Positions 12,496-31,523 of a stretch of DNA of 50,356 nt are shown in pieces. A model generated the notes under the pieces. The model saw only the letters and a program-made list of their open reading frames with translations, was not told where the DNA came from and did no database searches. Source of the DNA: Octopus sinensis (taxonomy: Eukaryota). The stretch's first letter is position 1. Each line of letters begins with the position of its first letter. The translations under genes were made by a program, and so were the position numbers. The stretch covers positions 1 to 50,356 of the forward strand of contig NW_021835934.1 in assembly GCF_006345805.1 (NCBI RefSeq), given 5' to 3'.

Positions 12496-12515
12496 TTACA
12501 CAGGAAGTATATCGA

Positions 12516-12655
12516 CTGTGGCATGGCTGTGTGGTAAGAAGCTTGCTTCCCAACCACATTGTTCCAGGTTCAGTTTCGCTACGCGAAACCTTGGGCAAGT
12601 GTCATCTGCTATTGCCCTGGGCCGACCAAAGCCCTGTGCGTAGATTTGGTGAACA
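12516..12655 (+). mobile_element. SINE-B head fragment
   Basis: TGGCTGTGTGGTAAG...ACCTTGGGCAAGTGTC...GATTTGGT. Confidence 0.8.
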
Positions 12656-12769
12656 CACACCACACAACACCACACACACACACAACAACACATATAATAT
12701 ATATTATATATATATATATTATATATATATATTATATGATATATATATATATATATATATATGCATGCA

Positions 12770-13001
12770 AAGGCGGCAAGCTTGCAGAAACGTTAGCACG
12801 CCCGGCGAAATGCGTAGCCGTATTTTGTCTGCTGTTACGTTCTGGGTTCAAATTCCGCCGAGATCGACTTTGCTTTTCATCCTTTCGGGGTCGATAAATT
12901 AAGTACCAGTTACGCACTGGGGTCGGTGTAATCGACTTAATCCGTTTGTCTGACCTTGTTTGTCCCCTCTGTGTTTATCCCCTTGTGGATAGTAAAGAAA
13001 T
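12770..13001 (+). mobile_element. SINE-A monomer
   Basis: Full match to family A. Confidence 0.92.
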
Positions 13002-13017
13002 ATATATATATATATGC

Positions 13018-13060
<43 letters not shown>

Positions 13061-13145
13061 TATGTATGTATGTATGTATGTATTATGTATGTATGTATGT
13101 ATGTATGTATGTATGCATGTATGTATGCATATATATGTGCGTATG

Positions 13146-13174
<29 letters not shown>

Positions 13175-13176
<2 letters not shown>

Positions 13177-13850
13177 TAATTGTTATCGCCATATTAATAT
13201 GGCAATCTTATAGATATAAGACTAAAAGCTTAAAAGACGAAACGCGTCTGTAGCTGTCTGACTAGCAGTGTGAAGCAGCTGACCTCCCTTGTTCGAAGGT
13301 TCTAATAGACACAGTTTGTGTGTCATATAGCTATCTTAAGGCGATAGCCTCATGGAGCTAATCAGCAACAGCTTTTAGTCTTATATCTATAAGATTGCCA
13401 TATTAATATGGCGATAACAATTAATTTCCAGTAACGCTGTCGTAATCTCTTTTAGAGAGACTTAGTAATTTTAATATTTCTATTATTGAAAACAAGTGGA
13501 TGTATTCCACCGATAATAGGTAAATAGAACCTTCGAACAGAGACGATCAGTGACGACACCTGCTGAGTCGACTACGCTACATTGACAAGGGGCAAATACC
13601 CTGAAACGCGTCTGTAGCTGTCTGACTAGCAGTGTGAAGCGGCTGACCTCCCTTGTTCGAAGGTTCTAATGGACACAGTTTGTGTGTCATATAGCTATCT
13701 TAAGGCGATGGCCTCATGGAGCTAATCAGCGACAGGATTTAGTCTTATATCTATAAGATTGCCATATTAATATGGCGATAACAATTAATTTCCAGTAACG
13801 CTGTCGTAATCTCTTTTAGAGAGACTTAGTAATTTTAATATTTCTATTAT
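13175..13850 (+). mobile_element. Retrozyme-like non-autonomous Penelope-type element: 364-nt tandem unit (1.7 copies) with an inverted 5' segment, inserted in (TA)n
   Basis: 13239-13486 is repeated at 13603-13850 (period 364, six substitutions). 13175-13230 is the reverse complement of 13370-13425. An HHR spans the unit junction. Confidence 0.85.
13576..13618 (+). ncRNA. Minimal type I hammerhead ribozyme with a U3-A8 core variant
   Basis: Stem I GCTACA/TGTAGC, core TTGACAA, stem II GGGG-caaata-CCCT, GAAA, palindromic stem III CGCG, predicted cleavage after GUC (13612). Confidence 0.8.
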
Positions 13851-13894
13851 ATATATATATTAATATATATATATATATATACTATATATATAAG

Positions 13895-14140
13895 TATACG
13901 ACAGAAGCCTGTCGTATACTTATATACATATATGTAAGTGTCTTTCTGCCTGTGTCTGTCTCCCACTGTCGCTTGAATACGGTGTTGGTGTTTTTACGTC
14001 CCTGTAACTTGGTGATTTGACGCTAGAGACCGATAGAAGAAGTACCGGGCTTAAAAAGAATAATTACTGGTGTCTACTAAAATTCTTCAAGGATGTGCTC
14101 AAGCATGGCCGCAGTCTAATGACTGAAACAAGTAAAAGAG
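13895..14140 (+). mobile_element. SINE-B 3' half, diverged
   Basis: GAAGCCTGTCGTAT...GACCGATAGAAGAAGTAC...GCATGGCCGCAGTCTAATGACTGAAACAAGTAAAAGAG. Confidence 0.85.
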
Positions 14141-15040
14141 ATCAAATAAGAGATAATTAATGAATTTTGCTGCATCTTTAGAGAATCATTATGGCTATAA
14201 TAAATGCATGCACTGGTTCTATTTCCCTTCATTTATTGTTAAGACCTCAATTAGTTAACATTTAGCCAATTAGCTAATCGATTACTTGATTAATCGTTCG
14301 GTCAACCAATGAACCAGCTTGGTTTGTCAAAGTGCTTTGGTCGCCATTTGCGATTACATCAATGATACGACTCCTTCAGATCTGATTCAGTTCTGTCTGT
14401 CTGTCTGTCAAACTCTGTTTCAACGCAGGAGTTTACGTTGTGAATCTCACAGACCAAAAACAAAAGAGAAAATATTTACTAAATCGATTCTTTTGGATCA
14501 ACGGAAACCTCTGTCTAAGCTACAAAGGAACAAGAAGAACTCCGAAAGAAGAAATAACGTGTAGCAGCGCCCTGTAAGAAATTCTGTTCACAGGAACAAA
14601 CAATTTATACTCTAAAGAGAAAAGGAGTGATTCAACATGGAGAATGCAAAAAATAAATGAAGTCGTATAAACCGTTTTATGTAAATACAAAAAAAATGTC
14701 ATTCTAGAAACAAAAGAAAAGCTAAGACAAATTATATCAACCAAAGTATTAAAGGGAAAATACTGCCAAAAATGTCAGTGTTTCCCCCAGGAGAACAAGG
14801 TATATGAATTAAATACCAAAATGTTATACACAGAGTTTTAACAAAAGATATGCAATGATGGAGGATAGAGCAACAGCAACTAAGGCCAAATATACTAGGA
14901 GTGGGGGAATATGGGGGAAAACACATTCAACATAATAAAAATAGTTCAACTGACCAAAAGGGAAAAGGATATACGTATACATGCACACACACACACACAT
15001 ATATATATATACGTCACACACCATTTATATATACATACTC

Positions 15041-16957: not shown

Positions 16958-17561
16958 AAAGGCGGTGAGCTGGCAGAAACGTTAGCACGCCGGGCGAAAT
17001 GTTTAGCAGTATTTCGCCCGTCGCTACGTTCTGAGTTCAAATTCCGCCGAGGTCGACGTTGCCTTTCATCCTTTCGGGGTCGATTAAATAAGTACCAGTT
17101 ACGCACTGGGGTCGATATAAGTGACTTAATCCGTTTGTCTGTCCTTGTTTGTCCCATCTGTGTTTAGCTCCTTGTGGGTAATAAAGAAATCGGTATTTCG
17201 TCTGCCGTTACGTTTTGAGTTCAAATTCCGCCGAGGTCGACTTTGCCTTTCATCCTTTCGGGGTCGATAAATTAAGTACCAGTTACGCACTGGGATCGAT
17301 ATAATCGACTTAATCCGCGTGTCTGTCCTTGTTTGTCCCATCTGTGTTTAGCCCCTTGTGGGTAATAAAGAAATCGGTATTTCGTCTGCCGTTACGTTCT
17401 GAGTTCAAATTCCGCCGAGGTTGACTTTGCCTTTCATCCTTTCGGCGTCGATATATAAAGTACCAATTTCCCACTGGGGTCGATATAATCGACTTAATCC
17501 GTGTGTCTGTCCTTGTTTGCCCCCCCACCTCTGTGTTTAGCCCCTTGTGGGCAATAAAGAA
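16958..17561 (+). mobile_element. SINE-A trimer (one head plus three 184-nt bodies) with a 19-bp TSD
   Basis: Units restart at 17191 and 17375. ATATATATTACAAGCGAAG occurs at 16939-16957 and 17562-17580. Confidence 0.92.
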
Positions 17562-18013
17562 ATATATATTACAAGCGAAGTTGAAACGGTGACGGAAAGG
17601 GTTGTATAACTATAAAGAACAGCGACTGGTGAATCGGACGATTACAGAAGATACGAGAAGCAGGAAACCAGATGCTGTAGCATGACCTGGATTGATAGAC
17701 TCCATAAAATAGTGCTGTCCCAATAGTAATAGCAATCCCAATATTAACAACAGCACTAATACTGATAGCTGCCCTAGTACTAACACCAGTTCTAATTCTA
17801 ACAACAGCCCTAATATTAACACCAGCCACGTTTTTATCGAAGTACGGTAATCAAATTATGCTAAAATGGCAAACAACGTTGCTAAAAGGCAAAGAGGAGA
17901 TAATTAAACTAATTTTCTGTCTAACCTCGACTCCAGCAATTCATCAGCAATCTTCTCTATTCTTTTACTTGTTATAGTAATTTGAACTGCGGTCATGCTG
18001 GAGCACGGCCTTG

Positions 18014-21233: not shown

Positions 21234-21266
<33 letters not shown>

Positions 21267-21269
<3 letters not shown>

Positions 21270-21429
21270 CTGTGTGGTAAGTAGCTTGCTTACCAACCAC
21301 GTGGTTCTGGGTTCAGTCCCACTGCGTGGCACCTTGGGCAAGTGTCTTCTACTATAGCCTCGGGCCGACCAATGCCTTGTGAGTGGATTTGGTAGACGGA
21401 AACTGAAAGAAGCCTGTTGTATGTGTATG

Positions 21430-21460
<31 letters not shown>

Positions 21461-21801
21461 TTGTATGTGTGTGTGTTTGTCCCTCCAACATCGCTTGACA
21501 ACCGATGCTGGTGTGTTTACGCCTACGTAACTTAACGGTTCGGCAAAAGAATAAGTAGCATGACCACAGTCAAATGACTGAAACAAGTAAAAGAGTAAAG
21601 AGTATATATATATATATATATAATATATATATATATATTGGCTGTGTGGTAAGTAGCTTGCTTACCAACCACGTGGTTCTGGGTTCAGTCCCACTGCGTG
21701 GCACCTTGGGCAAGTGTCTTCTACTATAGCCTCGGGCCGACCAATGCCTTGTGAGTGGATTTGGTAGACGGAAACTGAAAGAAGCCTGTTGTATGTGTAT
21801 G

Positions 21802-21834
<33 letters not shown>

Positions 21835-21975
21835 TTGTATGTGTGTGTGTTTGTCCCTCCAACATCGCTTGACAACCGATGCTGGTGTGTTTACGCCTAC
21901 GTAACTTAACGGTTCGGCAAAAGAATAAGTAGCATGACCACAGTCAAATGACTGAAACAAGTAAAAGAGTAAAGA

Positions 21976-21978
<3 letters not shown>
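21267..21978 (+). mobile_element. Tandemly duplicated SINE-B (two copies, period about 372 bp)
   Basis: Both copies share the same internal deletion (gaataagtagcatgacc junction) and private variants. Confidence 0.92.
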
Positions 21979-22023
<45 letters not shown>

Positions 22024-30718: not shown

Positions 30719-30923
30719 CGATAAATCTACTGAGTATTTAATGCTTAATTGCGACGGGATGCCTGCAACACCAGAGTGCGGAAGCTGATGGCTCCAGCTG
30801 GCCAAACTGTGTTGTTTCTAAATTTTGGCATAGAAGAAAGGAAGAAGGAATGGAATTACAAAATCTCAGAGAAATCTCAGAGATACATACTGTAGCAGTA
30901 TAGTATTTTAAAAGCTTATAATC

Positions 30924-31523
30924 TATTTCTTTACTACCCACAAGGGGCTAAACACAGAGTGGACAAACAAGGACAGACAAACGGATTAAGTTGATTATAT
31001 CGACCCCAGTGCGTAAGTGGTACTTATTTAATCGACCCCGAAAGGATGAATGGTAAAGTCGACCTCGGCGGAATTTGAACTCAGAACGTAGCGACAGACG
31101 AAATACCTATTTCTTTACTACCCACAAGGGGCTAAACACAGAGAGGACAAACAAGGACAGACAAACGGATTAAGTTGATTATATCGACCCCAGTGCGTAA
31201 GTGGTACTTATTTAATCGACCCCGAAAGGATGAATGGTAAAGTCGACCTCGGCGGAATTTGAACTCAGAACGTAGCGACAGACGAAATACCTATTTCTTT
31301 ACTACCCACAAGGGGCTAAACACAGGGAGGACAAACAAGGACAGACAAACGGATTAAGTTGATTATATCGACCCCAGTGCGTAACTGGTACTTATTTAAT
31401 CGACCCCGAAAGGATGAAAGGTAAAGTCGACCTCGGCGGAATTTGAACTCAGAACGTAGCGACAGACGAAATACTGTTGAGCATTTCGCCCGTCGTGCTA
31501 ACGTTTCGGCCAGCTCGCCAGCC
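30924..31523 (-). mobile_element. SINE-A trimer
   Basis: Units at 30924, 31108 and 31292 (period 184). TATAATCTA flanks both ends (30917-30925 and 31524-31532). Confidence 0.93.

Follow-up and report, generated by a model that had tools for sequence, protein, structure and literature searches.

Non-LTR retrozymes, the kind of element described here, have already been published from metazoans (PMC7229834) and vertebrates (10.64898/2026.07.22.740005), and their dependence on Penelope-like elements (PLEs) was proposed there in 2020 and 2026 on the basis of co-occurrence and homology. For PLEs themselves, a paper of 2014 put forward circles and reverse transcription over more than one unit (PMC4209133), and their insertions show a tandem or inverted structure, a one-sided tail and a bias towards microsatellites (10.1101/2021.04.23.441226). 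We analysed a stretch of 50,356 nt from Octopus sinensis (NW_021835934.1), called the window below, and found that its repeat locus is an ageing member of a dispersed family of non-coding repeats with a unit of ~360 nt. By every readable sequence feature the element is a non-LTR retrozyme, for which self-cleavage and circles are predicted. New are the PLE-type core, the two-site insertion geometry and a dedicated LINE parasite. The preliminary description of this DNA does not mention the LINE, the candidate helper PLE, the pair of fixed 3' ends or the U3-A8 core.

The window locus and its hammerhead

The window locus consists of 1.7 units and an inverted arm (Table 1). The preliminary description had reported an ORF-less direct repeat with a 364-nt period, inserted in (TA)n, with a 56-bp inverted segment at its 5' end, and all of this was confirmed: the direct repeat (13239-13486 / 13603-13850) has a spacing of 364 and 98% identity, the inverted segment (13175-13230 / 13370-13425, 56 nt) is perfect, (TA)n lies on both sides, and the longest stop-to-stop frame within the element is 60 aa. 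It had also noted that the first copy starts at half of another hammerhead, which is correct for the half-site; as a conserved boundary this start did not stand, for the 5' ends of other copies are scattered.

Table 1 Features of the retrozyme locus in the window (NW_021835934.1)
Feature	Position	Strand	Remark
(TA)n target, left flank	13150..13174	.	
Inverted arm, monomer positions 122-177	13175..13230	-	Ends outwardly at position 177, the short 3' end of the family
8-nt segment where the two arms join head-to-head	13231..13238	.	
Hammerhead 3' half (last 10 nt of the preceding unit)	13239..13248	+	
Monomer, cut-to-cut, 364 nt, 39.6% GC, non-coding, strongly self-paired	13249..13612	+	
Rod prolonging hammerhead stem I	13525..13668	+	Folding and compensatory pairs
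Homologue of the 17-nt site targeted by the Tx1-like LINE, unoccupied	13549..13565	+	
Type I hammerhead motif	13576..13618	+	Predicted cut after 13612
Second unit, partial, positions 1-238	13613..13850	+	End is the family's long 3' end (238)
61-nt 'tail', on the long arm only; contains a small hairpin	13790..13850	+	
(TA)n target, right flank	13851..13892	.	

In a published definition, an 'active' retrozyme copy has two consecutive units with complete hammerheads (10.64898/2026.07.22.740005); the window copy contains one complete hammerhead plus the upstream half-site. Five of the six rare changes in unit 1 (13249-13612) are private G>A changes, and with a single complete hammerhead and these five changes the window copy is a poor source of monomers. 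As a deaminase signature, the bias in unit 1 (5 G>A of 6, p 1e-3) was rejected, being not significant among 504 pieces. The hairpin GCTATC/GATAGC of the preliminary description rests, in unit 1, on one of these private G>A changes.

Other repeats of the window also lie within (TA)n, namely a 184-nt SINE-like unit in tandem triplets and a 374-nt repeat in two copies (17009-17563, 30923-31474, 21237-22013). For a possible Pol III promoter, inspection of the retrozyme by eye showed a B-box-like stretch but also several T4 runs. Just right of the retrozyme, a near-perfect hairpin at 13884-13929 resembles the inverted 3' end of the neighbouring SINE-like repeat.

The motif had been called a complete type I hammerhead, and its topology is indeed type I by sequence, with stem I at 13576-13581/13613-13618, stem II at 13589-13592/13599-13602, the core U3-A9 at 13582-13588, GAAA at 13603-13606, the stem III palindrome at 13606-13611 and a predicted cut after C13612. 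The core, however, reads U3-U4-G5-A6-C7-A8-A9 in place of C3..G8, stem II is closed by G.U, and Rfam returned no hammerhead family at E<=1 for positions 12500-14600; its membership in the type I class, as a U3-A8 variant, follows from topology and covariation. U3..A8 was found in 112 of 122 motif matches, a few of which are chance motifs, and the canonical C3-G8 is not what the family carries. The U3-A8 covariation has been described before, in a Schistosoma PLE (PMC4209133). Pair 10.1-11.1 is A-U, G.U or G-C across the family, with G-C in subfamily C only, and the stem III palindrome is ACGCGT in 79 and ACATGT in 32 of the 122 matches. Alternation between two palindromes is what a double-hammerhead fold requires.

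The monomer was described as highly structured, in agreement with its folding energy of -123.3 kcal/mol (13249-13612; z -7.4, equalled by 0/100 shuffles). The rod that extends stem I folds as described (13525-13668; z -5.6) and contains the compensatory pairs 13562-13630, 13571-13621 and 13579-13615, but its perfect 15-bp helix is limited to the sub-branch of the window, since G13527 occurs in 12/38 and C13666 in 12/50 aligned pieces, most having A and A. Under constraint, the half-site (double-hammerhead) form reached -191.3 vs -202.5 kcal/mol for the free fold, so that it lies 11 kcal/mol above the minimum and the single-hammerhead form 8. A cut after 13248 is predicted only if the downstream core serves it in the double-hammerhead fold. 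Circular folding, proposed in the preliminary description, gave z scores of -5.3 to -12.5 for family monomers.

For covariation, 112 predicted pairs were compared in five groups, each with four or more copies; 6 pairs changed on both sides (slid controls 0-1), 6 showed one-sided changes with pairing retained, and 23 were broken in at least one group, some of them at alignment gaps. The pair structure was derived from the window sequence, so the percentage paired is biased towards the window copy. The RNAalifold consensus over all 126 copies is weak, with decayed copies dominating. Taken together, the compensatory pairs, the z scores of the circular folds, the stem III palindromes and the variants of pair 10.1-11.1 argue that the RNA structure of the family is under selection.

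Family, insertions and candidate helper

The monomer search suggested in the preliminary description yielded 2,698 first-look candidates, and the 40 that were scored showed a dispersed unit. Genome-wide, a degenerate hammerhead pattern had 2,082 matches (control 0) and the exact long 3' end 746 (control 0), or ~1,800 long ends after extrapolation for decay, the match being exact in 34/83 long ends. Single-copy occurrence and a lack of covariation, which had been named as grounds against a retrozyme, were therefore not found. There are at least three subfamilies; the main three either contain the window copy or lie 12-13% from it, with a spread of 3-4% within each, and the unit length across the family is 357-367 nt. 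Contigs of four presumed RNA runs contain pieces of several subfamilies, with ends, strand and circles unreadable from such contigs.

Copies are dispersed, tandem or head-to-head, 5'-truncated and placed in TA microsatellites, and they possess two fixed 3' ends 61 nt apart. A set of 99 insertions has 148 outer 3' ends; position 238 (231-244) accounts for 83 of them and position 177 (173-180) for 50, counted in nt past the predicted cut. In outward-facing two-armed insertions the 177 end is paired with the 238 end in 37/50, and 45/52 partner arms end at 170-179. TA follows 134/175 long ends and 91/119 short ends; most ends lie in (TA)n, where a target-site duplication is unreadable. An LTR-like layout was found in none of 197 insertions. 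By its tandem or inverted structure, one-sided tail and microsatellite bias, the insertion geometry is of PLE type.

How far the template extends was read from 77 arms, chosen by their 3' end alone to avoid selection for intact hammerheads (from the first 79 of 746 long ends; two identical arms were collapsed, and two represent one duplicated insertion). Of these, 45 reach the predicted cut; 43 continue beyond it and the other 2 end no more than 8 nt away, and unit junctions are in register in 202/203 cases, in a set enriched for intact copies. Arms that pass the cut site, with precise junctions, indicate that the template is not a lone cleaved linear monomer. Cleaved monomers could still serve if the PLE RT, on reaching the 5' end of a monomer, jumped to the 3' end of that monomer or of a different one. 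PLE-type RTs are capable of template switching, and such jumping would also yield permuted copies, but 5' ends are not piled at the cut (2/45), junctions are too precise and adjacent units are as alike as arms (2.0%), which makes this route very unlikely.

Both arms belonged to one subfamily in 101/102 two-armed insertions, so arms from two different templates, hinted by one locus (L011), are not the rule. The arms of one insertion differ by 2.0%, as do adjacent units, vs 4.7% between insertions. Overlapping arms as alike as adjacent units suggest one template per insertion, read from two start points; conversion could contribute, and the likeness of arms could instead stem from gene conversion or from the way in which subfamily bursts were timed.

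Arms exceed one unit in 134/299 cases and two units in 14/299, and arrays of six or more units exist, with the longest reaching up to 2,482 nt. One of them (L167) has six complete hammerheads consecutively, so that active copies as defined above are present at other loci of the family. Its inner units share variants not found in the end units, and in another array (L168) units alternate with a two-unit period, showing that some arrays later expanded at the DNA level. Long arrays were accordingly discarded as proof of rolling-circle copying.

The best single case for a circle is a 3.6-unit arm at L227:493-1800 (G000:C1:152575216-152577316), where identical private A>G changes recur in each pass. 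On the ribozyme strand, A>G accounts for 8-9 of 10 changes per unit and T>C for none (p about 1e-6 to 3e-5 per piece, at a single locus among 504 pieces). Three A>G sites occur in 4/4 passes, both end units included. The GAAA core is broken by one of the changes, and no locus other than L227 showed its pair of hammerhead changes. DNA-level expansion could not create the three sites common to the end units without conversion, and L227 likely records an A-to-I-edited circle copied more than once, which would imply ADAR activity. As a signature of the whole family, A-to-I editing was rejected, with A>G vs T>C counts of 42 vs 40, 114 vs 113 and 6 vs 6.

Passage through the cut site would equally be expected of an uncleaved multimer, which weakens it as evidence for a circle. 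A linear multimer transcribed from tandem arrays might be the template for the same PLE helper, with a hammerhead that is slow or acts only as a signal for binding or priming; a circle would then not be needed. Arrays of sufficient length exist and grow at the DNA level, and related hammerheads are poor cleavers in vitro: low cleavage was reported for PLE-type minimal hammerheads (PMC4209133), and 8/9 Xenopus retrozyme dimers did not cleave (10.64898/2026.07.22.740005). Nevertheless, linear templates alone are hard to sustain, since so few arms exceed two units and a linear cycle would shorten the element each round. The same A>G sites in the end units of L227 need one molecule read twice, or later conversion, and the core and palindrome are retained with compensatory changes. 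We therefore regard a purely linear multimer as rather unlikely.

For the source of the RT, a search for GIY-YIG domains gave 5,029 candidates, of which 150 were scored, and 18/30 loci belonged to one PLE family. This candidate helper has a 781-aa RT/GIY-YIG frame with a C-terminal GIY-YIG and a CX4CxxC linker, in line with the CX2-5CxxC linker that marks Neptune/Nematis types (10.1101/2021.04.23.441226). Its hammerhead, with 1,002 genome matches, combines a TTGATAA core with an ACATGT stem III, as in retrozyme subfamily B. Like the retrozyme it has two 3' ends in (TA)n (18 short, 10 long and two others of 30), and the final seven letters of its long end are identical to those of the retrozyme's long end, whereas its tail measures about 30-35 nt vs 61. 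Given the same U3-A8 core and a two-end tail of its own, this resident RT and GIY-YIG PLE is the likely helper of the retrozyme family. Of the earlier proposal of a dispersed family moved by a Penelope RT, dispersal, covariation and PLE-type geometry are thus borne out, and the helper is a likely one.

Upstream of the RT frame the helper PLE has an overlapping ORF of ~480 aa (L128:5003-5081, L121-L124, L127), with no Pfam match for this ORF1. The overlap contains a T TTT TTA slippery site in 6/6 copies, and a -1 frameshift is likely. A second PLE family is present with a C3-G8 hammerhead (L125); the canonical hammerhead and a ACTCGAGT palindrome occur at L125:6015 and L132:3661.

The repeat might also be the pseudo-LTR or 3' end of an unfound autonomous PLE, with the copies as its 5'-truncated insertions. 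PLE geometry is present, 21/57 Xenopus retrozyme families matched PLE termini (10.64898/2026.07.22.740005), and the scored share of GIY-YIG candidates is small (150 of 5,029). As a pLTR of the candidate helper the repeat was rejected, for the monomer has no homology to PLE repeat DNA beyond motifs at 30 + 16 GIY-YIG loci (150 of 5,029 candidates scored). An autonomous PLE would place an ORF with RT and GIY-YIG between the repeats; long arms instead continue into further units and never into an ORF, and 85 single-armed 5' flanks contain neither a PLE protein match nor a common upstream body, save local duplicates and the LINE described below. We consider this origin highly improbable.

Our preferred reading, which we hold to be probable, is the full retrozyme mechanism of multimer self-cleavage, circularisation and PLE copying into (TA)n. 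Loci with two or more complete hammerheads would be transcribed by read-through, and the multimeric transcripts would self-cleave to monomers, probably in the double-hammerhead fold, as stem III is a bare palindrome. By analogy with published retrozymes, a host ligase such as RtcB may then close the monomer to a circle. The PLE endonuclease would open (TA)n, the two DNA ends would prime at two AU-rich sites of one RNA, and the RT would pass the ligated junction, at times for more than one turn, before the two cDNAs join head to head. Two later steps are evident from the sequences, the DNA-level growth of some arrays and the independent insertion of a LINE.

A Tx1-like LINE within the repeat

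The LINE was first noticed as a 3' end common to two loci at the same unit position. It measures 5.36 kb and encodes a zinc-knuckle ORF1 and an APE-RT-zf ORF2 (e.g. L299:3649-9008); from domain layout and behaviour, we take it to be Tx1-like. The retrozyme follows 27 of its 30 best copies, and after 2 others comes the same 17-mer with another LINE; genome-wide, 34/39 ends with the exact LINE 3'-end pattern lie at the retrozyme site. The 17-nt site, 47 nt upstream of the predicted hammerhead cut, is duplicated on both sides of the LINE, and 22/24 copies with a visible 5' end are full length with one junction, in loci picked as best matches (40/435 candidates scored). An ORF2 with APE and RT and a fixed target with duplication match the features of target-specific LINEs of the Tx1 clade. 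In the window, the corresponding site differs in 4/17 letters from the target used in other subfamilies.

LINE copies are 0.1-1.7% apart and not monophyletic within a five-copy array, their distances do not follow those of their flanks (Mantel r 0.01, n 17), and the flanks match the other units or own variants of the host insertion. These four observations show, at the level of sequence comparison, that the LINE inserted independently at one site of many repeat copies. The five-copy C3 array had hinted at a LINE riding in a 5.7-kb composite circle, which was rejected in view of the non-monophyletic copies and host-matched flanks. In this head-to-head array (L331-L334; G000:C3:72.50-72.53 Mb), five/five target sites hold separate full-length LINEs, and other arrays usually hold one.

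A satellite-like repeat spread by DNA-level events, or one moved by the joined LINE, could account for the expanded arrays and for the full-length LINE adjoining the repeat at dozens of loci. Yet fixed 3' ends, random 5' truncation and inversion are marks of retrotransposition, and the LINE lies inside units with a 17-nt duplication, in copies that are non-monophyletic and do not track their flanks. This explanation is largely refuted and, in our judgement, the least credible of all those considered.

Two of the five LINE ends not at the retrozyme site adjoin U1. At L351:4512-6822, a whole U1 snRNA, starting with its nucleotide 1, comes after a 92% LINE copy (Rfam 125 bits), and at L354:1061-6354 a full-length copy (93.5%) is preceded by U1 nucleotides 1-17 and sits between two facing U2 genes. 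From these two copies, the LINE has apparently switched its target from U1 snRNA to the retrozyme.

More tentatively, and with less than even confidence, the retrozyme copying proposed above may be part of a three-tier system, in which the PLE primes on a U3-A8 ribozyme circle at two fixed sites and copies it over several turns, one locus preserves an ADAR-edited circle as a fossil, and the LINE, having switched from U1, borrows the hammerheads on either side of it to release its transcript. Such use of the hammerheads, if true, would explain the uniform full-length 5' junctions.

Comparison with known systems

In a survey of mostly open literature on octopus hammerheads and retrozymes, PLE circles, retrozymes with ADAR and Tx1 targets, the family, an edited retrozyme insertion and a retrozyme-targeting LINE were undescribed. 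As far as consulted, PMC7229834 does not name cephalopods, and its supplements and those of bioRxiv papers may list cephalopod retrozymes. With about two thousand young insertions whose priming positions are defined, a substrate of 360 nt and a candidate helper protein, the family makes the model of how PLEs and animal retrozymes integrate testable in vitro. The apparent recent switch of the LINE, in which a ribozyme retroelement replaced an snRNA gene as target and the 17-nt spacing was kept, is relevant to changes of specificity in APE endonucleases and to the question whether another element's ribozyme can serve a LINE.

The closest relatives are the metazoan non-LTR retrozymes of coral and mussel (350-390 nt) and axolotl (330/350 nt), which share with the octopus family a short, non-coding, low-GC tandem unit, one type I hammerhead whose palindromic stem III is weak, strong self-pairing, copy numbers in the thousands and co-existing PLEs (PMC7229834). 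The octopus family differs from them in its U3-A8 core, a pair 10.1-11.1 other than G-C in two subfamilies, and mostly dispersed two-armed insertions of 1-2 units with two fixed 3' ends; cleavage and circles were demonstrated for those retrozymes (PMC7229834) and are predicted for the octopus family. Vertebrate non-LTR retrozymes are similar in their proposed PLE dependence and in their monomer, dimer and multimer copies (10.64898/2026.07.22.740005). Their link to PLEs consists of co-occurrence and pLTR homology (10.64898/2026.07.22.740005), and that of the octopus family, in which pLTR homology was not found, of insertion geometry, the U3-A8 motif in common and the letters of the 3' end.

PLE hammerheads, including the U3-A8 variant of Schistosoma Cercyon, have the same U3-A8 covariation and a palindromic 15.2-16.2 (PMC4209133), while the octopus motif departs from them in a 6-bp stem I extended to a long rod, a 4-bp stem II and its place in a unit that lacks an ORF. 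Neptune/Nematis-type EN+ PLEs resemble the family in tandem or inverted insertion, one-sided tail and (TA)n bias (10.1101/2021.04.23.441226). The candidate helper resembles them in its C-terminal GIY-YIG and CX2-5CxxC linker, as compared by features rather than phylogeny, whereas the repeat has no ORF. The helper in turn has the extra upstream ORF with its slippery site, unlike canonical EN+ PLEs, which are described as single-ORF elements (10.1101/2021.04.23.441226).

Target-specific LINEs of the Tx1 clade include Tx1L in Tx1D, Keno in U2 and Tx1-Mar in Mariner-N4 (PMC4494074, PMC4640811, PMC6719617), and the target listings consulted there give only Dada-U1, a DNA transposon, for U1. Like those LINEs, the octopus LINE has an APE-RT protein and a fixed target that is either a multicopy element or an snRNA gene. 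It stands apart in that its target is a ribozyme retroelement, with its more divergent copies adjoining U1 snRNA.
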